Origin: a virus
Lineage: Duplodnaviria > Caudoviricetes
IMG/VR virus record: IMGVR_UViG_3300027843_000012
Coordinates: 1 to 30,457 of that record
Direction: 5' to 3' (one strand)
DNA: 30,457 nt
The notes beneath the pieces were generated by a model. It had not been told where the DNA came from. It did no database searches and saw nothing but the letters and a program-made list of their open reading frames with translations. Both the position numbers and the translations under genes were made by a program. Shown here piece by piece: positions 1 through 26,209 of the stretch (positions are counted from its first letter, which is position 1; every line of letters starts with the position of its first letter).

Positions 1-3000
1 TTTTTCTTTTTCTTCTTTGTCTTTAATGAAACTTACTTTTGCTTTATTTTGTGAATATCTATAAATTTTTTCTATTGCTTTTTCTTTTGACATTTCATCT
101 TCGTCAGTTGTTGTGTCTGGTAAAGATTTATAATAACTAGATTTAAATAATGCTTCTAGTGCATTATAATTAGATTTCCCATCAATTTTTGCAAATTTTT
201 CATATTGTTTTGGCGTTAAATTTATTTCTTCTTTATCGTTTGAAAAAGATGTGCTACTTACACTTGGTAATATTTTTGTATTTTGTGTTATTTCAAATAA
301 TTTAGCAAGTTCTTTATCTACTTTTGTCTCGTTTATATCTTTTATATATGATGGAGATACAAAGTTTTGTAAAGCAGCAGTTAGTGTATCACTTGTTTGT
401 TTTCTACCATAAGCATCAATATATGCTGGAAGTGTTTTACTTGCGAAAGGAACTTTTGCTATTTGTTTATTTAAAAACATTTGTACATTTTTAGGTGTGT
501 CTTTGTTTTTATCTGCCATAGTTGACCTTCTTGTAGTATCAATAGTTCTTGCAAATTGACCCATTAAAGTTGGAACATATTGTCCAGCATAGTTAAACGA
601 AGTATTTGCTATTAAGCCTTCTATTTTGTTGTCTTCATAAGAACTTAGTGTTGTGTTTATTCCTTGTAATAAAGACATTTCTGTTAAAGGGTCAAGCATC
701 TTACTAGCACTATCTAATAATTGCCAACCATTTATTTCTTTATCTTCTTCCATTGCTTTTTGAATTTCAACTCCTAAGAATATTGGAATTCCTATTGGTG
801 CAACCCAATCAAGAGAATAAGATTTTCCACCTATGTTAAGAGAATATCTTTGATTACCTTGAAGTTCACCAAATTTCTTTTCTTTATCATCTTCTGGACC
901 ACTAGCAGTTAGTATTCCTAATGCAGATAATAACATTCCTAGTGCAGTTGCACTTGTTCCTGTTAATCCTTTTGATAAGTTGTCTATGTATTTTGTTGCT
1001 GTTATTTCGTTGTTTTTTAATTTAACACTGTCTCTACTTAATGTTTTAATAAGTCCCAATGGTGAGTATTCAAGTCCAGTAGTTAATATGTTTGCTGGTG
1101 TTTTCTTATATGGAACAACCCCACTTATTGCTTCTCTAACAATAGGGTTAGCATTTCTTTCTGTACTAGATATATAATTTGCAAGAGCATTAAATTGTTT
1201 AAAAGTTGCTTCTAATGCTTGTGACACGGCATAACTTCTTGCTTTTTCAAGAGCAACGTTTGCTTGTGTTGTACCACTATTTAAATAGTCTGGAGTTAAG
1301 TTATTCGCTGCCATATAATTTGCTAATGTTCTTTCATAAACACCATTTGAAAATATTTTATCTCCCCACTCTAAACTTTTACTATTAAGTTCTGCCAAGA
1401 AATTCAATATTTTTCCATCAAACGCTCTTTTATTTTTGTTAATAAGGGATTTTGTATCGTATTTATCTCCGCTTAATCTATCAGCAACTTCTTTAACATC
1501 AAGTTTGGCAAATGTTTTTTGTTCTGGTGTTGCTTTCTTTAATGTTTTAGTTCTTTCTGCTGGATTAACAATAGTTTCAATGACTTTTGCTGTGAAGTTC
1601 TTTTGCGCTCTAACTGGTGTAAATATTGCATTTGCAACTAAGTTTTTTATGTGTGTTTTAGGATTTCCTAACATTGCTAAATATCTCCAAGACCTTGCTT
1701 TGTCTGCAAAAGATAATGGCATTTGTTGTGATATTTCTTGTATTGCATTTGCAACTGCTAAATCAAGTTCTTCTGTTGTTTTAGCATTTAAAATACTATC
1801 TTTAACTTCTTTACTTAATTTTATTTTTGGTTTTTTATCTTTATATCTTTTTTCTATATTTTTATTTTCTCTATAAATAATATTTGTTAAAGTCTGTAAG
1901 CGACCTCTTGGAGATAATTTATTTACCAAAGATAATGCTTGTATAGATTGTCCTAATTCAGTTGCCATAATAGAAACTTGACTTATAAGATTAGTAACTT
2001 TATCTAAATCTCCTTTTGCTTGTGCCTCTCTAATTAGAAGTTCAGTATTAACTATATCTTGTTTTGTAAATCTTTCACCTAATTCAAATTTGGTTTCAAT
2101 AGAATTGAGTAAATTATCATAACCGACTTGTTTTAAAGTGCTTTTACCTTTTTTAATAGCATCTTTATCTCCTTGTACAACATAATCAGTTTCCTCTATA
2201 AGTTTTTTAGTTTTTTTACTTAAAAGTGTACTTGATTTTATTGTTTTTTCAAAACCTCTTGTTTTAGTTTCTTCTTTTGTTACTTCAGCTTTAAGTCTTA
2301 TGTCTTCGTTTGATGTAGGTTTAAGGTTTGTTGTTTCTTTGATTTGGTTTGGTTCAAATGCAACATAATCATTTCCTGTATCATCAGCAAAATCAAAAAC
2401 ATCTTTTATAATTATCCCATCATATCCATCTCTTTTTGCTATATCTATAATGTCATTTGTTGATATTTGATTATAAAAATCTCCTGTTTTTTCATCTGTA
2501 TAATCAACTAATATTTCTTCATATCCTCTTCCTTCAGCATCTATAACTAGAGGATTTTTAATATTTAAAAAACTTTTAACTAGATATCCTTTTTTTGTAT
2601 CATAGTTATCAAATTCTGCCCATTGTTTTGCATATTGTTTTGCACCATCTTTATAATCTGTAAAAAATACACTTCCTTCAGAGAATTCGTTTATTGGTGC
2701 TGATGTACCATGATAGACAACTAATAAATTTCCATTTTCATCTCTAACTTTACTATCTTTAAAGTATTCTACCACTTCTCTAGGTAGTTTCTTACCTGTG
2801 CTGTCGTAGTTAGATACTACTTCTCCTTTAGAGTTTTTAACTACAAAATCTCCTTCAACTGATAACTGTTGTGTAGAAGTTGTTTCAAACTTACCTTTTA
2901 GTGCTTTTTCGTATAATTTTTCAGCCTTTTTATAAAATGCAAGTGTTTCTCTTTCTTCTTTTGTCATAGTTGCAACATTAGACAATGCTTTAACTCTTTC

Positions 3001-4809
3001 TTTAATATAGTCATAAAACTTTTGTGCCATATTTCTATTATCGTTTGCTAGTCTATTGATAAATGTTTCGTTTGATAATATATTGTCTACTGAAAAGTTA
3101 GCAACTATTTCTTTATATATGTCATTTTCTTGTAATGTTCTACCTTGTTGTGTATAAATAGGTTCATATATACTTCTAATATCTTCTATTGCTTGTTGTA
3201 ATTGTCCTTTTTTATCTAATTCAGTTAATATAAAATCACTAAATCCATCATATTCATCACTATTTTCTACAAAGTGTGAAAATTCGTGCTTAGCAGTTTC
3301 TATATGCTTATTAGGTGTCTTTTCATCAAGATATATTTTGTTATTTATAATAAGTCCAGGCAAGTTAGTTCCTTGTGGAATATTTAACTCTTGTTTTAAG
3401 TTATCCATATTAACTATTGCAAGTTCAACTTTAGCATTGTCTGGTAAAATTGTATTAACTTTATCTATAAAATTAACTACATTTGTATCTTCTGCTGTTA
3501 TTTGTACTACATTTCGCTCTATAACGGGGTTTATTTGACTTGTAAGAGGTGTTTGTGTAGTTGTTGGTGTATTTATATTAGTTTGAGGAATTGTTGTTGT
3601 AGGTGCTTCTAATTGAGTTTGAGTAGGTGCTTCTGGTTTTGTTCCAATTTTATTAAGTCCTGTATTTATAGATGAACCTAAAACATTTGTTGCTCCACCT
3701 AGTAATAATGCTCCTGCTCCACCTAATATTGCACTTTGTTGTAATCTTGCAGCATCTTGTGAACTATCTCTTTTTATTCCTGCTTGTTGTGTCGCTCTTT
3801 TTTCTCCTTCAATAGTTGATTTTTCTTGTAGCGTTTCTTCTATTGCTTCTGTTGGAATGTTTGCTAAATAAGATTTACCAGCCTTTTTAAGCCAACTTTC
3901 TACCATTTCTCCACCATATTTTTTAACTAAAGAAGATTTAACTGCTCCTGTAAGTTTAGAAAACTGACCCATAGTAACTAGGTCTATAATACTTTCTCCG
4001 CCTTCTATTCCTGCATTGATAAGTCCTACATTTTTTGCTTCTTTTTTGGCAATATCTTCTGGAACTCCCATTTCAATCATTGTTTGGTATGCACTTCCAT
4101 ATTCCATTTTATAAGTGCTTTCTGCAGTTCCTTTTACATAACCTGCTCCACCTGCTAATTTTGCTCCTCCAATTGCTCCTGCTCCTGTACCTGCTCCTCC
4201 AGTTGCTAAACCTGTAAGTCCAGCCCCTATTAAAGCACCTCCAACAGATAACACACCACCTTGTTTTATTCCTTCAATTTGGCTTTCTACTGAACTTGGT
4301 GCAGATGTTATTGTTTGAGTAATTATATTTTTAGATTTAGTTATCTCTGGGTATTTATTTTCAAACTCTACAATTTGTTTTGATATTTTTTCTACATCAT
4401 TCTTTTCACCTTGTGCTTTTTTATAATACTCAAGAGATAAGTTTTTTTGTAAATCTCCATGCCTATATGCTAATGGTGCTGTTTGAATAGGCTTAACTGC
4501 TTTTTCTTCTACACTTCTACCCATTTGCTTAACTTCACCAAATGCTCCTTGTAGTCCTGCTCCACCACGATTTATAGTTGAAGAAGATAGTTTTTGTGCT
4601 TCTTGTTGTAATTTAGTATTTGCTTTTTGTTGCTCTTTAGTATAGTCTGGCATAGGCGCAAATGAAAAACCTGTTCTTGATGTAGGTTGAGTTATAATGG
4701 GTTCTTGTTTTGGCCTAGATAAATCACCTAATGTTAATTGTTTTGGTTTAGAAGAAGGAGTAGTTGATACTCCTTTTTGTAAATCTCCTAATGTCAGTTG
4801 TTTTGCCAT
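1..4809 (-). CDS. Large polyvalent DNA-ejection/internal virion protein (>1603 aa, runs off the window): Gly-rich hydrophobic N-region, zincin metallopeptidase, ADP-ribosyltransferase (ART-PolyVal-like) and large helical C-terminal region
   Basis: Not in the ORF track. Translated by hand: ATG at 4809 after GGAGG RBS, MAKQLTLGDLQKG..., frame open to base 1 (...RYSQNKAKVSFIKDKEEKEK). HEFSH at 3288-3274 with downstream KEIVAN. VVYHGT (~2720-2704)...FFT...A..YA...FLNIKNPL...GYDGII...DYVAFEPNQIK (~2370-2338). Located at the end of a podoviral virion operon. Confidence 0.88.
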   Translation of the reverse strand, partial: MAKQLTLGDLQKGVSTTPSSKPKQLTLGDLSRPKQEPIITQPTSRTGFSFAPMPDYTKEQQKANTKLQQEAQKLSSSTINRGGAGLQGAFGEVKQMGRSVEEKAVKPIQTAPLAYRHGDLQKNLSLEYYKKAQGEKNDVEKISKQIVEFENKYPEITKSKNIITQTITSAPSSVESQIEGIKQGGVLSVGGALIGAGLTGLATGGAGTGAGAIGGAKLAGGAGYVKGTAESTYKMEYGSAYQTMIEMGVPEDIAKKEAKNVGLINAGIEGGESIIDLVTMGQFSKLTGAVKSSLVKKYGGEMVESWLKKAGKSYLANIPTEAIEETLQEKSTIEGEKRATQQAGIKRDSSQDAARLQQSAILGGAGALLLGGATNVLGSSINTGLNKIGTKPEAPTQTQLEAPTTTIPQTNINTPTTTQTPLTSQINPVIERNVVQITAEDTNVVNFIDKVNTILPDNAKVELAIVNMDNLKQELNIPQGTNLPGLIINNKIYLDEKTPNKHIETAKHEFSHFVENSDEYDGFSDFILTELDKKGQLQQAIEDIRSIYEPIYTQQGRTLQENDIYKEIVANFSVDNILSNETFINRLANDNRNMAQKFYDYIKERVKALSNVATMTKEERETLAFYKKAEKLYEKALKGKFETTSTQQLSVEGDFVVKNSKGEVVSNYDSTGKKLPREVVEYFKDSKVRDENGNLLVVYHGTSAPINEFSEGSVFFTDYKDGAKQYAKQWAEFDNYDTKKGYLVKSFLNIKNPLVIDAEGRGYEEILVDYTDEKTGDFYNQISTNDIIDIAKRDGYDGIIIKDVFDFADDTGNDYVAFEPNQIKETTNLKPTSNEDIRLKAEVTKEETKTRGFEKTIKSSTLLSKKTKKLIEETDYVVQGDKDAIKKGKSTLKQVGYDNLLNSIETKFELGERFTKQDIVNTELLIREAQAKGDLDKVTNLISQVSIMATELGQSIQALSLVNKLSPRGRLQTLTNIIYRENKNIEKRYKDKKPKIKLSKEVKDSILNAKTTEELDLAVANAIQEISQQMPLSFADKARSWRYLAMLGNPKTHIKNLVANAIFTPVRAQKNFTAKVIETIVNPAERTKTLKKATPEQKTFAKLDVKEVADRLSGDKYDTKSLINKNKRAFDGKILNFLAELNSKSLEWGDKIFSNGVYERTLANYMAANNLTPDYLNSGTTQANVALEKARSYAVSQALEATFKQFNALANYISSTERNANPIVREAISGVVPYKKTPANILTTGLEYSPLGLIKTLSRDSVKLKNNEITATKYIDNLSKGLTGTSATALGMLLSALGILTASGPEDDKEKKFGELQGNQRYSLNIGGKSYSLDWVAPIGIPIFLGVEIQKAMEEDKEINGWQLLDSASKMLDPLTEMSLLQGINTTLSSYEDNKIEGLIANTSFNYAGQYVPTLMGQFARTIDTTRRSTMADKNKDTPKNVQMFLNKQIAKVPFASKTLPAYIDAYGRKQTSDTLTAALQNFVSPSYIKDINETKVDKELAKLFEITQNTKILPSVSSTSFSNDKEEINLTPKQYEKFAKIDGKSNYNALEALFKSSYYKSLPDTTTDEDEMSKEKAIEKIYRYSQNKAKVSFIKDKEEKEK

Positions 4810-13633: not shown

Positions 13634-15367
13634 TTAATCTTCCTCCATTCGTTTGATTAACTTGTGTTCTAATAATATTCTTATTCTTTCTCCAGAATAT
13701 AATTTTGCTTCTTCTCCTGCTTCTACAAAGTTATTTTCTTCATCTCTTATTCTTTCTACTGCAATCCATCTATCTGGTTTATCTTCATAAAAAGTTCCAT
13801 CAAATACATAATTGCTTTTTTGAAATTTTCCAAGTAATGGTAACCATAATTTTTCATACTCATACTTTATAGGTTCAAATGTAATTCTTTTTAATTTAGA
13901 TATTACTTCATCCATATTAGACATATCCATTTCAAGTATAAATCCTGTTTTATCTTTTACGAACGATTGTTCGTATATACTTGGATAATTTGTTGCTATT
14001 ACAGGAACTCCTAATGATAATGCTTCTTTAGTTGCATAACCATCTGCTTCTGTATTAGATAATTGAATTAAGAAATCTGCTTTTTTTGTTTCTTCTAATA
14101 TATCAAGATTTGGTATTTTATATACTAAATTTGGTATATCATCTTGTTTAACATCAGTTGTATATACTTCCCATATATAAGGTATCTTCAATTCATTCAT
14201 TCGTTCTGCAAATGCTTTCATTCTCCAATAACCTTTTTCCCAACTTAATCTAGTTGTAGATATAAAATGTAGTTTCTTGTCTTTTCTTACTTCTCTTTTT
14301 ATATTATGAACTAATAAATTATGTATAGTCACGCATTTTTCATCTGGTAATTGTTTTAAGAATGACCTAGCACTTGCTTCACTAACACATATTGTTAGAG
14401 TTGTTTTAGGATGTTTAACATATTTCCAACCCATTGCATCATAATCTGTGTGGCACATATCATAGTAATTACCACTTATTGCAGTTACATCATCTGCTAT
14501 ATTTTTATTAAAGTTACAATTCAAGAATGTTTCACACTCTATTTTTTCACCATAATATCTTTGACATCTTACATATTTTCTATATCTATTTAATTGTATT
14601 GGGTCTGCTTCATCATATAAGAACAATATATCGTATTTGTCGTGAAATTCTTTTACAAACTCATAAACAAATGTTTCTACTCCACCAATTTTACTTATAA
14701 ACCTTAAAAACATTACTATTTGTGCTTTTAAAGGTCTTAAAGATGTTATTTCACCTTTACAATACTTATCTGTAAGGCTATCTTCTCTACCTACATTATA
14801 TATATACATAATATCTGTTATGTTCTTTTTCTTACCATTACGAACTCTAGTATTAAAATCCCAATCTTCTCCATATTGTAAATTCTTTTTAAATCTGTTT
14901 TTTCCTATTATTTTCCTACTATATACACAATTCCATACACTTTTATTGAATTCTGGTGGTTCATTAGCAATTATGTACTCGTTTCCTTTAGTATCTTTCC
15001 AAGATAGATAGCAATAATCATAATCTTCTTTAATTGATAATATATTTTTGATATAATCACCGCTTACACTATCATCACTATCTATAAATGCTATATATTG
15101 ACCTTTTGCATTATTTAAACCTATATTTCTTGCATTAGATACTCCACCATTGTCTATATGGAACACTTTTGCAGGTAATTTATCAAGTTCTTTCTCATAA
15201 CATCCATCATCTATCAATAAAACCTCTACATTTTCATTTAATTGAGGTTCTAAAACTTTAAATAACTCTTTTGTATAATCTAAAGTCTTATAATATGGAA
15301 TGATTATTGATAATTTAATCGCAAAATCCTCTTTTTTCGTAATCAATTTCAATTCCTTCTTTCTCAA
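13634..15367 (-). CDS. Bifunctional glycosyltransferase: GT2 (GT-A) + GT4-like (GT-B) + small C-terminal domain
   Basis: KLSIIIPYY...IDDG...NGGVSNARNIG...AFIDSDD (GT2). IGGVETF...RLSWEKG...ADFLIQLSNTEADGYATKEALSLGVPVIAT (GT-B, E-X7-E). Start codon uncertain (15367/15352/15346 TTG or 15319 ATT). Confidence 0.9.
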   Translation of the reverse strand: MRKKELKLITKKEDFAIKLSIIIPYYKTLDYTKELFKVLEPQLNENVEVLLIDDGCYEKELDKLPAKVFHIDNGGVSNARNIGLNNAKGQYIAFIDSDDSVSGDYIKNILSIKEDYDYCYLSWKDTKGNEYIIANEPPEFNKSVWNCVYSRKIIGKNRFKKNLQYGEDWDFNTRVRNGKKKNITDIMYIYNVGREDSLTDKYCKGEITSLRPLKAQIVMFLRFISKIGGVETFVYEFVKEFHDKYDILFLYDEADPIQLNRYRKYVRCQRYYGEKIECETFLNCNFNKNIADDVTAISGNYYDMCHTDYDAMGWKYVKHPKTTLTICVSEASARSFLKQLPDEKCVTIHNLLVHNIKREVRKDKKLHFISTTRLSWEKGYWRMKAFAERMNELKIPYIWEVYTTDVKQDDIPNLVYKIPNLDILEETKKADFLIQLSNTEADGYATKEALSLGVPVIATNYPSIYEQSFVKDKTGFILEMDMSNMDEVISKLKRITFEPIKYEYEKLWLPLLGKFQKSNYVFDGTFYEDKPDRWIAVERIRDEENNFVEAGEEAKLYSGERIRILLEHKLIKRMEED

Positions 15368-15971
15368 AGAATGGTATTATCTCTTTACACCACTGACCTT
15401 GTTTAATACTCCAAGGTTGATGATTGTAATAACCTATATCTATAATAAAATCCTCACAATTTACATAAAATTCGTAAGGACTATCAACTGGTGTTAATTC
15501 CCAATCCCAAGCACTTTCGTTTTTTTGTAGCCTTTCAATAAGTTTTAATCTATTGTGAATACTTGGTTGGCAACTATTTAAATACATTGTCTTGTTTAAC
15601 CTTTTTTTAAACCCATTTAAGACACTTTCTTCACAAGGCAATTCATAACACTTCTCAAAGTTAAAAACTGCTGTATTGTCATTAAAAATACTTATAATAG
15701 TGTCTATTCGTGTTTGGTCTACATAATCTCTTATAAAAAAGTCTTCTAACATTACTAATACATATTCTGTATCTATTTTTTCTAATGCATTTCTAAATCT
15801 TTCTGTCCAAGTTCCTTTTTCTTTTGTCGTATCAAAATACGAACATTCTTTCGTTTCTGTACATATATAAGTTTTATAAGGACAATCTTTCCAATACTTC
15901 TCTTTTAGGTTATAAAAAGGTTCCCAACAATCTTCGTAATTATCACTAGACATTATCAGTAAACTAACCAT
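15315..15971 (-). CDS. Putative GT-A-fold glycosyltransferase
   Basis: SSDNYEDCWEPF...WTERFRNALEKIDTEYVLVMLEDFF (DxD-like E-D motif after a hydrophobic strand), AWDWE. Lies between two sugar genes with overlapping stop/start codons. Confidence 0.65.
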   Translation of the reverse strand: MVSLLIMSSDNYEDCWEPFYNLKEKYWKDCPYKTYICTETKECSYFDTTKEKGTWTERFRNALEKIDTEYVLVMLEDFFIRDYVDQTRIDTIISIFNDNTAVFNFEKCYELPCEESVLNGFKKRLNKTMYLNSCQPSIHNRLKLIERLQKNESAWDWELTPVDSPYEFYVNCEDFIIDIGYYNHQPWSIKQGQWCKEIIPFFEKEGIEIDYEKRGFCD

Positions 15972-16860
15972 ATATTAACTCCGTTAATTCTTTTTTTGTA
16001 AATCTCTTTGCATTATCACTTGTTAAAGGTTCATCGTGTGTATAGTTTTCTATATCTTTTGATACCCTATAATAATTACCTATAAGTTCACTGTGGTTAA
16101 GTTCGTTTATTGTTAATAACGCTTCATCTGTCTTTTCTATACAACGAAGTCCTGTTGTTATTTGATTACTACTTATACAATCTGCTATTTCACCTATTGT
16201 ACAAGATTTATTATTGAATACAAACAAGTCTTTATGTTTACCATTTTCTAAAGCGTATAACACTAAATCTATTGCTTCATCTATTGTCATAAAAAATCTA
16301 GTTATATTTCTATCTGTTATTGTTAAAGGCTTACCTTCGCTTGCTAATTTTTTGAATATAGGAATAACACTTCCATTACTTCCTACTACATTTCCATATC
16401 TTGTTGTTATCAAAGATGTTTCCTTATTGTCTACACATTGTGCGAACATTTCCATAAACATTTTAGTGTTTCCATATATTGTTGTTGCATTAGTCGCTTT
16501 ATCTGTACTAAGTAACACAACTTTTTTAACTTTATTTTCTATACTAGCAAGCATTACATTTATACTTCCATCAATATTAGTTCTTTTTGCTTCTAAAGGG
16601 AACGCTTCACATTTATCTATAAACTTCATTGCTGCACTATGTAGTACATAATCAACTCCATTTGTTGCAGATAACATTGTATCGTAATCTCTTATATCTC
16701 CTATAATGTATTTAACTCTACTATCATTATGTTCCATTTTGCTTTCTAATTGTGATTTCTCACTGCGATTTAAAACTCTTATTTCTTCTACATCTGTCTT
16801 AAGTAGTTTCTTAATCATTGCATTTGCAAAAGTTCCATTTCCAGTTATTAGATATTTCAT
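15964..16860 (-). CDS. UDP-GlcNAc 4,6-dehydratase-like extended SDR (CapE/FnlA/PseB, Polysacc_synt_2 family)
   Basis: Degenerate Rossmann LITGNGTFA, GDIRD, HSAAMK, STDKA, YGNTK (YxxxK), TRYGNVVGSNGSVIP, TRFFMT. AAGGAGG RBS. Confidence 0.9.
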   Translation of the reverse strand: MKYLITGNGTFANAMIKKLLKTDVEEIRVLNRSEKSQLESKMEHNDSRVKYIIGDIRDYDTMLSATNGVDYVLHSAAMKFIDKCEAFPLEAKRTNIDGSINVMLASIENKVKKVVLLSTDKATNATTIYGNTKMFMEMFAQCVDNKETSLITTRYGNVVGSNGSVIPIFKKLASEGKPLTITDRNITRFFMTIDEAIDLVLYALENGKHKDLFVFNNKSCTIGEIADCISSNQITTGLRCIEKTDEALLTINELNHSELIGNYYRVSKDIENYTHDEPLTSDNAKRFTKKELTELIYG

Positions 16861-21650: not shown

Positions 21651-23129
21651 TTAATAACCTCCATCATAATTTATAAATTCTGGGGTTGCTCTTTCAACTC
21701 CCATTTCTTCAAGTATATTCTTTTGTCTTCTTATTGCATATAATTCAGCATCAGTTACATTTCTCATTGTTGCATCTATTGTCTTTAATCTATTAAGTGC
21801 TTGTGATGTACTATCTACTTCATCATCGTGTGCCATATTGGGAAATCCTACAAGTTCATTAACATAGTCGTTAGTCCATTCTCTTTGTGGTATATATACA
21901 TTACCACTTTCAAATAATGGTGCCACTGCATTTACTCTCGCTATCTTTCCGCCCTCTGGCTTAATTTCTATAATGCTATCCATTTCTAATCTTAACATTG
22001 ATATAATAGCACTACCATTTGCTTTATCTTCTATCAATACACTATTAACAGGATGTTTTAGTCTTATACTTCTTATTGCTTGCATTGTAGTAGGAAAGTC
22101 CATTCGTGCTTTTAATCTATCTATCAAGTAGTAGTTATGATTTAGTTTACCCCACACTTGTATTGCTACATAGTCATTCTTTTCTCCATCTTTAAACGTT
22201 GCGTCTACCGATATACATTTATAAGCCATTTGAGGTAGCGTATCATAATACTTAATCCAGTGTCTTTTAATCATATTACCTTCCATTGCTGTTGGTCTTC
22301 CTTGAAATAACGCATTCCAAGTCATACTTCCTTCTTGTGATGTATATGATGTCTTAAACTCTTTTAACCAAGCATTATCTTTACCTATCTCTGGAAATAA
22401 TGCATCTCCTTGTTGTCTACCTAAGATGTCATTTTCTTCTGCTTCACAAGGTATATTTATATAAGTCCACTTATGAGGTTCATTTGCCATAAGTCTTCCC
22501 GCTAAATCATCTTCACTCCATCGTGTTTGTATTAAGATAACACTACCAGAAGCCGATAAACGAGTGTGTAGAGAGTTTAACCATTCATCCCATAGTTTAT
22601 TCCTATATGTTTCACTATTTGCTTCTTCTCGGTTCTTAATAGGGTCATCTATGATTATAAGGTCTGCTGGTTGTCCTGTGATACCTGCCATTATACCTCT
22701 ACTTATCATTGTACCTTTATGTTCTTCTATTTCAAACTCACTATCACTCATACTTGATTTACTTAATGTTATTCCAAACAATTGTTCGCCATATTGTTCT
22801 ATCTTTTGTTTGTTTCTTCTTCCAAATCTTCTTGCTAAGTCTTCTCCATATGATGCTTCTATAACTCTTTTACTAGGATATTTACCTAAATAATAACTTG
22901 GTAGTGTTTCAGTAACTGTCTGGCTCTTTCCGTGTTGTGGTGGCATTGATATAATTAGTCTTTTAATATCTCCGTTAATTACTTTCTCTATATAGTCACA
23001 TACTAGTTCTAAATGTTTACTTCTTAACCATCTTCCCTCGTGTACGTAATCTACATAGTCTATATAACTTCTTCTTGCTAATTCTTTCTTTGCTTCTCCT
23101 CTTACATATTCAGGTATCATTCTAACCAC
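21651..23129 (-). CDS. terL: Terminase large subunit
   Basis: Walker A MPPQHGKS, Walker B LIIIDDP, motif III IQTRW, LFQGRP, nuclease motifs SVDAT...IEDKANG...HDDEVDSTSQ. Confidence 0.96.
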   Translation of the reverse strand: MVRMIPEYVRGEAKKELARRSYIDYVDYVHEGRWLRSKHLELVCDYIEKVINGDIKRLIISMPPQHGKSQTVTETLPSYYLGKYPSKRVIEASYGEDLARRFGRRNKQKIEQYGEQLFGITLSKSSMSDSEFEIEEHKGTMISRGIMAGITGQPADLIIIDDPIKNREEANSETYRNKLWDEWLNSLHTRLSASGSVILIQTRWSEDDLAGRLMANEPHKWTYINIPCEAEENDILGRQQGDALFPEIGKDNAWLKEFKTSYTSQEGSMTWNALFQGRPTAMEGNMIKRHWIKYYDTLPQMAYKCISVDATFKDGEKNDYVAIQVWGKLNHNYYLIDRLKARMDFPTTMQAIRSIRLKHPVNSVLIEDKANGSAIISMLRLEMDSIIEIKPEGGKIARVNAVAPLFESGNVYIPQREWTNDYVNELVGFPNMAHDDEVDSTSQALNRLKTIDATMRNVTDAELYAIRRQKNILEEMGVERATPEFINYDGGY

Positions 23130-23511
23130 CTGCTAATTTCTTTAATTCCTCTACTGATAGTTTCTTTAAGTTCTCTTGTGTCTTATCTTCTAACTTAACA
23201 TTACTATCAACTTCTGTTTTATCTCTATAGTTAAATTTGTTCTTCATATAGAATATTTTAAATGTATCATTTATCTTTGCATTTATAGTTGCATCCTCTA
23301 ATTTTTGTTGAATTTTCTTATAAGTGTCAAAGTAATATTCCTCTTGATTATAGAATGTTTCTCTTGTTATATCTGCATATACACAAAATCCTGCAATGTT
23401 AGGTAAGTATTCTATTTGTTTGCAGTAGTCTATATAGTTATTAAATGTATCTATGAATTCCTTTTCATCTTTAAAACTTCTAGGATGTCCTTTGCCTCTT
23501 TTTTCTTCCAT
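23122..23511 (-). CDS. terS: Terminase small subunit (P22 gp3-like)
   Basis: GHPRSF...PNIAGFCVYADITRETFYN (HTH)...IFYMKNKFNYRDK; overlaps the terL start. Confidence 0.85.
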   Translation of the reverse strand: MEEKRGKGHPRSFKDEKEFIDTFNNYIDYCKQIEYLPNIAGFCVYADITRETFYNQEEYYFDTYKKIQQKLEDATINAKINDTFKIFYMKNKFNYRDKTEVDSNVKLEDKTQENLKKLSVEELKKLAGG

Positions 23512-23589
23512 TGTTATATCACTTCCTTTTCGTACATATGTTCGTGTATATTTGGTTTTACCTAATTTGCTTTTGTTGTTATATGAGAA

Positions 23590-24290
23590 TTACTTTTTAT
23601 TTCGTTGTGGCGAAATTACTTTTAATTTTTAATAGTTATTCCGTTACAAAGGAATAAGTTTTATCGGTTATTCTTATAAAAGGTCGTATATTCGTGACCT
23701 TTGAGTTGTCGACACTTTGTCGTTATCTTGTTTACTTTGTTCATTGTAAGATAATAAATTCATTATCATTCATAATGCTAGAAACGTATTTCGTGTCCTT
23801 TGACATTTTGCATTACTATATTTCACTTTTCTTGCGTACCAAGATATTTACTATCCTACAATCAGCAAGTAAATGCTGATGCCTAAAACAATAGTTAATT
23901 ATAGTGTCTTTCATAACTACTGGCGGTCTATTGACATTACGTCTCGACTAAACACTACATCGTTTTAAAGGTCTTCTTTTGAGTAGATACAGATTTGCAC
24001 TGTATATGATGGGTTTCATTGAAATTGATTACATCCAATCAATAAGGCTTTCCCTATGTAATTAGGGTTCATCGTGCCTTTTCCGCGTCTAACTATTCCG
24101 CCACTACTCATATTAAGGCGTTATTCTCAGAAATACACCGAAGGCTACGCTACCAAAACTTTAGCTAAGTTTGGAACTTATATCGTTCCTATTAGACTAG
24201 CATCCTAAGTCTGCATATAAAGTCCTCAATAGGCTGAGTATACCTAACAAACATTACTAATCTAATAGCAAGGAATAAATCCTACTTATA
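23590..24290 (-). ncRNA. Putative large structured non-coding RNA (boundaries approximate)
   Basis: Only long ORF-free stretch in a tightly packed operon. At least 12 stems, three candidate pseudoknots, several stems whose G-U pairs work only on the minus strand, a UACG tetraloop and an embedded tRNA-like module. Confidence 0.6.
23980..24110 (-). ncRNA. tRNA-like element (class II fold) lacking a canonical anticodon arm
   Basis: Acceptor UGAGUAG/CUACUCA; U8G9; D-arm GCG-GAAUAGUUAGA-CGC; variable arm AUGA/UCAU; T-arm AUACAG-UGCAAAU-CUGUAU; 131 nt; no encoded CCA. Confidence 0.7.
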
Positions 24291-24402
24291 ATTTTTATTT
24301 AATATACCACCTTTGTACCCCTGCGTTTGTTTTGTGGTATTCCCGCCCCTGTATAGTCCTTATGCTGTGCATTGTTGATTATACCTCTCCTATTTATATA
24401 TT

Positions 24403-24819
24403 CTATTGTTTTTTGTAAATTAGACTTTTTACTTTATATGGACTTTTTTTAAATATTAAAAGGTTGTCCTTTGTACTATCTATTATATAGCCCATTTCCA
24501 TTACTTCTTGTTCTAACCAAGTGTGAAATGCTACCTTCATATAAAATGGGTCATCTTTAATATCTAACATATGTTTATACTCTTTTAAGTATTCTATTAT
24601 TCTTCTTCTTTTGTATTTGTCATCATCACTTAGTATATGTACTCCACTATGTTCTAAATGACAGGCTAGACTTCCGTTTTCTAAGTTAGTTGGTCCGCCA
24701 TTTTTCTTTTCTTCTATGTGGTGCATTGTTAGAGGATTTCTAAATGTTACTGTTCCCCCTAACATACATACTGATAAATACTTTTGTTCTAATTGTTCTC
24801 TTACTTGTGTGTTTGTCAT
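24403..24819 (-). CDS. HNH endonuclease
   Basis: LTMHHIEEKKNGGPTNLENGSLACHLEHSGVH matches the HH-x-GG-x-N-x-H core. Located near the terminase genes. Confidence 0.8.
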   Translation of the reverse strand: MTNTQVREQLEQKYLSVCMLGGTVTFRNPLTMHHIEEKKNGGPTNLENGSLACHLEHSGVHILSDDDKYKRRRIIEYLKEYKHMLDIKDDPFYMKVAFHTWLEQEVMEMGYIIDSTKDNLLIFKKSPYKVKSLIYKKQ

Positions 24820-24820
24820 A

Positions 24821-26134
24821 CTACATCTCCTTAGTTAGTACTTTTTTTTTACTCTCAAAGTTGATATTATACTGAGTTGTCATTCCATATTCTTTATGCC
24901 ATATAAATAGTTCGTGTTTTTGTGTTGCTCCTACAAATCTTTCGTGATAGTGCCAAGCATCTGTTCCTGATGGACTACCAACTCTGCGAGTTATAAGTCC
25001 GCTGTCATCATCTACCACCATTTCTTTATGTAAGTGTCCTAAATGCAATTCTCTAAATGTTGATTTTCCCCATTCTTCATTAAATTCAGTTGATATACTT
25101 TTCATAAGTCTTTTTAAATTAGGGTCGCCATGGTTAGTAAATATTGCACACTTCCCGAATGTATAACATTGTGTTTCTTTATAGTCATTGCTAAAATTTA
25201 TAATCTTGTCGTTATCAAAGTATTGTTGTAATGCACTATATAAGTAAAACTCTGCCATATTACCGTGATTACCTTGTACTAACTTAACATCTATGTTATT
25301 AAATTGTTCTCTTAATGTTATTATCGCTTCTTTATATAGTTTTAATCCCACATTAAACATTTTTTTCCAACGAACATCGTTTTGCTGACTTGTCCCCGCT
25401 GTGGTAGTATTGTTTACTGTATCACTATTGAAGAAGTCATTACCTATATATAATACTGCTCTACTGCATTTTTCTATGTCTTGTTTGTATTTAATCTCTT
25501 GTATTATTTTATAAAATCTATCTTGTGCTATATGTTGGTCATAGTCTTGTCCTGTATCTCCAGACCAAGCTAATTTACCCAAATGTAACTCAATAGCAGG
25601 TATTTCAAATAACTTATCTTCATCTAGTCCTTTTTGTTTTGGTTTAGATAATAGTTTTATTGGTTTAATTGCTTTTGACATTTCTTCTTTAATAATAGCC
25701 ATATATTCTTCTCTACGAAGCTCAGTCTTTAATAAAGGTTTAATTACTGCTCTTATAGTTGTACATACTCTATTGGTTGCTTCATCTTTGATTGCTACTT
25801 CCCATTTACCAAATCTCCAAGATTGTAATGTCCATTCGTTAGGGTCGTATCCAAATTTCTTTAATACGCTTTCTGGTGTCTTTTTCTCGTTTTCATCAAA
25901 CCATACTTCTTTTTGTAGTTCTACACTTCCATTTGCATAGTGCATTTCATATTCTTCTTTAGATACTTCGTTTTGCATTGTTGCTGTATCTTCTTTTAAA
26001 TTGCTATGTCTTTTTCTTAAAGCATTACCTGTTAGATTTAAATTAGTTTGGTTGTTAAAACTCTTTGCTGCTTGTTCCCAAGTTAATGCTCCTGATTTTA
26101 CTTTTTCTCCTAGTTCTTTTATTAGTTCGTACAT
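24821..26134 (-). CDS. Calcineurin-like metallophosphoesterase with N-terminal HTH
   Basis: ELHLG, GNDFFN, GNHG, NHGD and GHLH metal-binding motifs; N-terminal TWEQAAKSFN...TGNALRKR HTH-like segment. Confidence 0.85.
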   Translation of the reverse strand: MYELIKELGEKVKSGALTWEQAAKSFNNQTNLNLTGNALRKRHSNLKEDTATMQNEVSKEEYEMHYANGSVELQKEVWFDENEKKTPESVLKKFGYDPNEWTLQSWRFGKWEVAIKDEATNRVCTTIRAVIKPLLKTELRREEYMAIIKEEMSKAIKPIKLLSKPKQKGLDEDKLFEIPAIELHLGKLAWSGDTGQDYDQHIAQDRFYKIIQEIKYKQDIEKCSRAVLYIGNDFFNSDTVNNTTTAGTSQQNDVRWKKMFNVGLKLYKEAIITLREQFNNIDVKLVQGNHGNMAEFYLYSALQQYFDNDKIINFSNDYKETQCYTFGKCAIFTNHGDPNLKRLMKSISTEFNEEWGKSTFRELHLGHLHKEMVVDDDSGLITRRVGSPSGTDAWHYHERFVGATQKHELFIWHKEYGMTTQYNINFESKKKVLTKEM

Positions 26135-26179: not shown

Positions 26180-26209
26180 ATTATAACATATATTTCAACA
26201 AATTTACAA
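26180..26209 (-). promoter_or_regulatory. Leftward sigma-A-type promoter
   Basis: Minus strand TTGTAA (26209-26204), 18 nt spacer, TATAAT (26185-26180) with extended -10 TGn; ~45 nt upstream of the phosphoesterase ATG. Confidence 0.65.

Follow-up and report, generated by a model that had tools for sequence, protein, structure and literature searches.

The window analyzed here, 30,457 nucleotides in length, is the whole of virus record IMGVR_UViG_3300027843_000012, which is 83% complete. On its minus strand, 891 nucleotides (23512-24402) separate an HNH endonuclease gene from terS. The earlier note described this gap as flanked by these two genes and as lacking a convincing ORF. Both descriptions hold: Pfam PF01844 and PF16677 match the respective neighbors, and minus-strand ORFs of at least 50 codons are absent. 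The plus strand contains two short ORFs of 59 and 61 amino acids, neither of which has a match in PHROG. The features of the locus are as follows, in the 5' to 3' direction of the minus strand, with z-scores relative to shuffled sequence.

24821-26134, minus strand: exonuclease gene, preceding the HNH gene
24403-24819, minus strand: HNH endonuclease gene (PF01844), upstream neighbor of the gap
24301-24309, minus strand: candidate extended -10 promoter (TG-n-TATATT, 5 of 6 to consensus, without a good -35)
24295-24400, minus strand: folded stretch beyond the boundary set earlier (z -3.27), overlapping the promoter candidate
24166-24290, minus strand: unit 1, a long helix whose 14-bp core (24268-24255 with 24202-24189) is predicted to close a weakly supported inner fold
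24112-24165, minus strand: spacer, identical to junction (b), in which a stable fold is unsupported
23980-24110, minus strand: tRNA-shaped element of 131 nucleotides, assigned by family membership; acceptor, D, and T stems all appear in the local fold
23885-23966, minus strand: unit (d), an interrupted helix of 8 bp and 8 bp with a possible UAGUUA/UAACUA pseudoknot
23743-23880, minus strand: unit (e/f), in which a 17-bp helix containing two G-U pairs comes after a hairpin (23880-23861)
23700-23728, minus strand: stand-alone copy of a palindrome from Bro-N genes (PADLOC PDC-S13); core with at most 1 mismatch, 28 of 36 nucleotides against the best bacterial copies
23679-23702, minus strand: stand-alone copy of an imperfect palindrome from KilA-N genes (PADLOC PDC-S22); core with at most 1 mismatch, 30 of 36 nucleotides
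23599-23657, minus strand: two hairpins (23657-23636 and 23616-23599), from the hairpin scan and fold probabilities
23531-23544, minus strand: LexA-box-like site directly ahead of the terS start, 1 mismatch to the presumed Bacillota consensus
23122-23511, minus strand: terS gene (PF16677), downstream neighbor of the gap; terL, portal, and head genes are next

Extended -10 sites of the kind found at 24301-24309 number 13 on the minus strand of the window, this one included. Transcription from it would begin near 24294, which is the onset of folding. The LexA-box-like site ahead of terS is one of four in the window (23531-23544, 13960, 15840, and 22775) with no more than 1 mismatch to what we take to be the consensus, and the copy at 13960 is perfect. 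Two stretches outside the gap are also worth describing. Positions 1-4800 form approximately 4.8 kb nearly devoid of ORFs of at least 50 codons counted from a start codon, with ordinary folding. At 13634-16860, glycosyltransferase and nucleotide-sugar epimerase genes are located directly 3' of the major head gene, within the structural operon, and hint at possible glycosylation of the virion.

The earlier note could not place the region in a known family by eye, and the database searches agree. No Rfam family, with GOLLD and ROOL among the models, matches the gap at the gathering level, and at E ≤ 10 just three chance-level matches appear (snoRNA, miRNA, and DicF fragments). ARAGORN calls no tRNA or tmRNA in the gap, and the window is without a true tRNA. 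The tmRNA, Y RNA/YrlA, and phi29 pRNA models (Rfam/ARAGORN) have no match in the gap; the tmRNA model is positive in a control locus. Ribozyme core motifs (HDV-like, hammerhead, twister, pistol, and hatchet) were not found on the minus strand by Rfam or by a crude test with a descriptor and known core motifs. A twister-like ribozyme was considered for unit 1 and rejected, its core motifs being missing.

Searches by similarity gave little for the gap as a whole. A blastn search against 50,697 phage records returned no match. The gap flanks were compared with the loci of the tRNA-like family described below (approximately 120 viral, 101 genomic) and with 104 terL-related loci, and no homologue was found. 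Identical copies aside, the closest relatives by terL are at 74-81% in that gene, and the metagenome scan gave five loci; the exonuclease-based scan of genomes confirmed zero relatives. Pattern scans using the T arm of the window copy, unit (d), and unit 1 recovered the phage itself only among the viral contigs and fetched loci. The upstream part of the gap gave 11 matches in 401 genomes and was set aside, since all of the 8 contexts inspected were AT-rich chance. For 24295-24400, likewise, AT-rich chance matches only were obtained.

The folding signal of the gap is strand-biased. All motifs that the earlier note had listed, (a) to (g), are present on the minus strand at their positions, and the 14-bp stem of (a) has its two U-G pairs. 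The expectation that the region folds better than shuffled controls is confirmed for the minus strand (z -4.72, equaled by 0 of 20 shuffles); the value for the plus strand is -1.88. This is the lowest z of 20 sampled windows of 701 nucleotides, the runner-up being -3.4. The region contains 17 hairpins with at least 5 Watson-Crick pairs against 6.8 ± 2.6 in shuffles, and 0 of 1000 shuffles reach 17. Of 200 shuffles, 2.5% contain a 14-bp helix with at most two G-U pairs; two such helices are present on the minus strand of the region, and the plus strand lacks them.

This signal is uneven and is carried by unit 1 and unit (e/f). Unit 1 has z -3.69 on the minus strand versus -1.64 on the plus strand, with a probability of 0.96 for the core and at most 0.25 for the inner stems. 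Unit (e/f) has z -4.14 versus -1.82. Its 17-bp helix (23862-23846 with 23759-23743, pair probability 0.93) was overlooked earlier and encloses the UCUUG/CAAGA hairpin and the (f) region. The long helices of both units contain two G-U pairs each and hold on the minus strand only.

The remaining motifs fared less evenly. The GCGU/ACGC three-way junction (b) has z -0.29 and a pair probability of 0.03, and the (f) junction (z -1.19) is not confirmed as a fold. The UUAUCUU/AAGAUAA hairpin of (g) has a probability of 0.0, and its UUAUCUU is used by the 17-bp helix. For (d), the stems are well predicted (0.84 and 0.88), with a z of just -1.12 against shuffles. The pattern of pseudoknot (e) is present and occurs in 0.9% of 1000 shuffles; the structure is outcompeted by the 17-bp helix, which it excludes because both need AGUAAA. 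Given the rarity of the pattern in shuffles, a switch between the two is still conceivable. Predicted pairing is mostly internal to the units, the exceptions being pairs between (b) and the tRNA-like unit and a few between (b) and the 3' end. No homologue was found for unit 1 or unit (e/f), and since units 1, (d), and (e/f) are without homologues, their independence and their folds are argued from energy alone.

The tRNA-like module (c) of the earlier description corresponds to the 131-nucleotide element. Its acceptor is 7 bp in length (24110-24104 with 23986-23980). The D arm (24101-24085) is of the leucine type, with G19 changed to U. A 79-nucleotide insert (24084-24006) ending in CAU replaces the anticodon arm. 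The T stem has 6 bp (24005-24000 with 23992-23987) and the loop UGCAAAU, and there is no CCA.

Elements of this architecture were searched for with a pattern of D arm, 60-90 nucleotides, and T loop in viral sequence, and with a spacing of 65-95 nucleotides in the genomic scan. The viral family comprises approximately 550 stretches, an estimate from 14 of 64 parts, with 120 among the matches listed; the genomic family comprises 101 stretches, mostly Bacillota by title. The insert length of 55-90 nucleotides is bounded by the search pattern. The same pattern partly fixes the D arm and T loop, whose invariance therefore cannot count as independent evidence. The stems provide other evidence. All 7 acceptor positions are paired in 157 of 198 distinct elements and all 6 T-stem positions in 182, and CCA is encoded in 3 of the 198. 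Clustering of the 197 usable inserts gives 137 clusters; the window insert is on its own. Over these clusters, acceptor pairs 1-6 are paired in 88-98% versus 39-58% in shuffled sequence, U48 is kept in 135 of 137, and the discriminator is A in 70, U in 38, G in 18, and C in 11 (A in the window copy). An alignment of 32 rows, picked by hand, has 98.4% of cells paired versus 71.7% when shuffled and 34-45% when slid, and 11 of 16 pairs change on both sides. By these counts, covariation of the 7-bp acceptor helix and the 6-bp T helix extends over the 137 unrelated inserts. On R1, a model derived from the 32-row alignment, the window copy, a training member, reaches 87.6 bits and three held-out members reach 70.8-78.1 bits; T5 RNA1 and a true tRNA-Leu, both outsiders, score 25.8 and 18.7.

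As far as annotation is concerned, Rfam leaves the element uncovered in every family locus among 36 loci scanned, and ARAGORN leaves it uncalled in 60 loci. Rfam 15 does not contain the class, and matches in named phages lie mostly where nothing is annotated. The literature searches turned up no description of a family with UGCAAAU and 7+6 helices; the catalogue of 10,006 RNAs in PMC10690425 may include it, although the files searched from it have no occurrence. By the spread of its sequence pattern, the UGCAAAU tRNA-like family is a widespread, unannotated phage class.

The window copy belongs to this family by its 7-bp acceptor, 6-bp T stem, YAU before the T stem, and leucine-type D arm. It is unusual in one position. 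G18 and G19 are both present in 195 of the 198 elements, and U19 is unique to the window copy, where the G19-C56 elbow pair would therefore break. When folded in isolation, the element forms as drawn. In the energy model of the whole 705 nucleotides, its acceptor stem has a probability of 0.01 because spacer (b) competes. The unique U19 and the loss of the acceptor to the spacer both count against a working elbow in this copy.

The element is also found apart from the rest of the gap. Among relatives with a long upstream stretch, the closest (L002/L235; terL 81%, exonuclease 49%) has an element whose acceptor is identical to that of the window, with a compensated T-stem pair and a different insert. 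It is located 22 nucleotides 3' of a TTGACA-N18-TATAAT promoter, upstream of the exonuclease; the spacer of this promoter contains a LexA half site. On the same contig (L002, L235, and L269; identical in L127), the pre-terS gap at L002 2780-3260 is approximately 480 nucleotides in length with z -4.18. It differs from the window fold and has no Rfam hit and no match in the other fetched loci.

In other phages the element keeps varied company. It is found among true tRNAs in 16 of 60 loci. In L196 its immediate neighbor is a tRNA, in phage Lenus it sits between two tRNA-Arg, and in L022 it is part of a 17-tRNA array. ROOL is a separate neighbor in 3 of 16 loci (L162, L209, and L196; 104-198 bits), so the ROOL model works on such DNA. 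Terminator-like hairpins within 200 nucleotides are found downstream of the element in 20 of 94 cases and upstream in 4 of 94. Directly upstream, 19 of 61 loci have a gene of the late-activator type; directly downstream, 10 of 63 have one for HNH, terminase, portal, or scaffold. Loci L014 and L066 share flanking modules in a different order. In locus L029, exonuclease, island, and terS follow one another as they do in the window, the island itself being different. The family model matches in 4 of 100 terL loci. The element changes position between related phages. The earlier proposal of one multi-pseudoknot RNA of approximately 700 nucleotides and a new class is not supported, since no homologue of the whole was found and the closest relative has the tRNA-like unit alone, elsewhere. 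The evidence does support the second option then offered, in which several RNAs are arrayed where the packaging operon begins.

Three other loci merit description. In L061, three tandem tRNA-like elements (1339-1824; 33-78 bits with model R1) lie among real tRNAs. A conserved non-coding sequence separates the element from the following tRNA in L162 (1336-1600) and L209 (1190-935); it has no Rfam hit, and ROOL is upstream in both loci. In the control locus L144 (1311-1643), the tmRNA begins directly 3' of a tRNA-like element whose T arm is identical to that of the window.

The 3' end of the gap resembles bacterial gene sequence. In 401 genomes of one order, the downstream part (23978-23590) has 36 matches, distributed over 35 genomes; 8 of them, in 7 genomes, fall on 23704-23679. 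Seven of these 8 are in the frame of KilA-N genes, 3 of them stop-interrupted, and 1 lies just 3' of a KilA-N stop codon. The remaining 28 matches, of which 6 were inspected, are scattered and were set aside as chance. The KilA-N copy in the window retains the asymmetry of the bacterial site and overlaps the Bro-N copy by a few bases. For the Bro-N palindrome, a 21-base pattern has approximately 150 genomic matches, with approximately 0.3 expected under uniform composition, and a peptide motif that we take to be that of Bro-N is present in 84 of the 120 pattern matches listed. Domain tests of the palindrome-bearing ORFs are positive for Bro-N in 18 of 18 and for KilA-N in 6 of 6; PADLOC assigns 7 of 7 to PDC-S13 and 5 of 5 to PDC-S22, which are defense candidates by library label only. 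Because the two 3' hairpins match palindromes of bacterial genes, RNA structure is not required there.

Neither a Bro-N nor a KilA-N domain was found in the record, and tblastn around the palindromes detects no decayed gene of either kind. As the record is 83% complete, a phage-encoded Bro-N or KilA-N gene may lie in the missing part. Thirteen other viral copies of the Bro-N site were found, 2 inside Bro-N genes and 11 outside, several of them beside promoters or start codons; no other viral copy of the KilA-N variant was found. With 4 mismatches allowed, a search of 2.1 Mb of further island and terL loci did not find the palindromes, which leaves this record as the only one in which they have been seen alongside the tRNA-like element. 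The literature searches yielded no description of these palindromes.

Several observations accompany these sites. In L594, L600, L596/L599, and L598, stand-alone phage Bro-N palindromes either immediately precede start codons or have another, different palindrome next to them, and look like operators or decoy pairs. A second KilA-N palindrome copy in L450 (1197-1225) starts right past the stop codon of the KilA-N gene that contains the first. A 14-nucleotide direct repeat is present in the window at 23803-23785 and 23704-23685 (minus strand), and its first copy resembles a partial second KilA-N site. The hexamer CACGAA, which we take to be the site of yeast Swi4 (with a KilA-N-like domain), has three copies within 250 nucleotides before terS and 12 in the window. 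For the hairpins at 23599-23657, a RhuM-type half site was tried and rejected, with 1 match versus 1 control in 301 genomes, inside an unrelated ORF.

Two predicted strand-biased helices accompany two gene-derived palindromes in the gap. The tRNA-like frame, as its conservation pattern indicates, is free of decoding or charging features and moves as a unit. In our judgment the gap is probably a mosaic, with parts independent of one another arranged in the packaging-operon leader around a tRNA-shaped processing handle. The minus strand would be transcribed from the candidate extended -10 at 24309 or from an operon promoter at 26209, and the element would then fold into a tRNA elbow. RNase P and RNase Z are the established tRNA-processing enzymes of Bacillota. 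RNase P would cut at 24110, and RNase Z after approximately 23979, as there is no encoded CCA. Processing would free a stable RNA of approximately 131 nucleotides that is non-decoding and has a variable cargo, and the same cuts would split the late leader, parting unit 1 from the terS leader. The palindrome copies would be binding sites, more likely as DNA, for host Bro-N and KilA-N proteins; once bound, they may function as decoys or as operators, much like the BstA aba element.

The mosaic has to be weighed against other accounts. A single ornate RNA of approximately 700 nucleotides and a new class (GOLLD- or ROOL-like, or a packaging RNA) with several pseudoknots would account for the z of -4.7 with its strand bias, for the promoter candidate at the 5' edge, and for a length near the ROOL mean of 581 nucleotides given in PMC5737381; tRNAs can also occur in the GOLLD linker, according to 10.1101/2024.12.08.627333. 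We nevertheless consider it unlikely, because the Rfam matches at E ≤ 10 are three and at chance level, no homologue of the whole region was found, predicted pairs are mostly confined to units, pseudoknot (e) is outcompeted, and the tRNA-like unit and the palindromes are distributed separately and are unrelated to each other. Slightly less improbable is a decaying relic mixed with DNA signals (pac/terminase or repressor sites) or captured fragments, with little functional RNA. The U19 of the window copy, palindromes that are equally effective on either strand, the CACGAA copies before terS, and the LexA-like box would all suit such a relic. Decay does not agree with an acceptor intact at 7 of 7 and a T stem at 6 of 6, with a T-stem pair compensated relative to L235, with G-U pairs that hold the two long helices together on the minus strand only, or with the failure of tblastn to find a decayed KilA-N or Bro-N gene around the palindromes.

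Two further accounts give the tRNA-like RNA itself the active role. It could be a decoy for defense proteins that sense or cut tRNA, or a substrate of LeuRS; the leucine-type D arm, the kept A15-U48 positions, and its place among real tRNAs in 16 of 60 loci point that way. A73 is an identity element for LeuRS, and charging is disfavored by the unconserved discriminator and the rarely encoded CCA, while the anticodon region is unrelated between the 137 clusters. We regard this account as improbable, to the same degree as the ornate RNA. A cloverleaf carrying loops that act as antisense guides, comparable to the c4 RNA that RNase P processes in phage P1, would fit a constant frame with a hypervariable insert. 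It is very improbable, given that the longest insert match has a mean of 6.51 within its own ±1.2 kb and 6.50 in other loci, that 0 of 94 inserts have a match of at least 12 nucleotides within their own ±1.2 kb, and that the window insert has no long match elsewhere in the window. A bolder extension of the mosaic takes the late leader as a counter-defense cassette that combines a tRNA scaffold freed by RNase P and RNase Z with mimics of the PDC-S13 and PDC-S22 self-recognition palindromes. The scaffold, with its 13-bp acceptor/T helix and its occurrence in hundreds of Bacillota phages, would display swappable RNA cargo, and the fused mimics would switch off the PDC-S13 Bro-N and PDC-S22 KilA-N proteins as aba silences BstA. 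This is speculative and rather doubtful.

A common but unannotated phage RNA class is now defined with covariation. Culturable carriers such as Lactobacillus phiJL-1 and Lenus make the role of T5-type tRNA-like RNAs testable. The palindromes supply exact candidate target sites for two uncharacterized defense candidates, PDC-S13 and PDC-S22. If they are decoys, mimicry of the internal site of a defense gene would be a general route of counter-defense.

Among known systems, class II tRNA-Leu (RF00005) resembles the element in D-arm sequence, A15/U48, G18, C56, U54/A58, and the 7-bp acceptor. Canonical tRNA-Leu has a 7+5 acceptor/T helix, a UUC T loop, and A73. The element differs in having no anticodon arm, G55, a 6-bp T stem (7+6, loop UGCAAAU), and a variable discriminator (A73 in 70 of 137 clusters). 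The canonical anticodon stem of 5 bp and loop of 7 nucleotides are replaced by a branched insert of 79 nucleotides.

ROOL (RF03087) has a cut-off of 99.1 bits, a length of approximately 581 nucleotides, six junctions, and three pseudoknots. ROOL and GOLLD occupy non-coding islands near tRNAs in phages and prophages (PMC5737381; 10.1101/2024.12.08.627333); the gap is likewise a non-coding phage island, in a window without a true tRNA. Both RNAs also assemble by themselves into cages. ROOL and GOLLD are single conserved folds, whereas the gap is a mosaic whose flanks have no homologue. The ROOL model has no match in the window at the gathering level or at E ≤ 10 and is positive in 3 of 16 loci; the Rfam model of the GOLLD 3' domain, which has no positive control among these loci, has no match in the window.

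For the palindromes, the nearest system is BstA, a KilA-N-like defense protein suppressed, also in trans, by a short DNA that overlaps its own gene, as reported in PMC8585504. According to the same report, this aba element measures 63 bp, has direct repeats at its ends, and belongs to a gene of the prophage itself. The window sites share with aba a sequence found in the interior of a KilA-N or Bro-N gene. They differ in being stand-alone palindromes from the middle of PDC-S22 and PDC-S13 genes. By analogy, they may serve as decoys.

The closest counterpart of the element is RNA1 of phage T5 (AY543070, 30501-30644), annotated as 'tRNA-like stable RNA with unknown functions'. RNA1 has a leucine-type D arm, a 7-bp acceptor, a long insert for the anticodon arm, and no CCA, and it is found among other stable RNAs and tRNAs. 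It differs in its loop (UUCAACU) and 5-bp T stem, the family having UGCAAAU and 6 bp for a helix of 13 bp (7+6). The shared design is a tRNA frame with an insert in place of the anticodon arm, and on this likeness the element, a member of no Rfam family, would work like the tRNA-like stable RNAs of T5.
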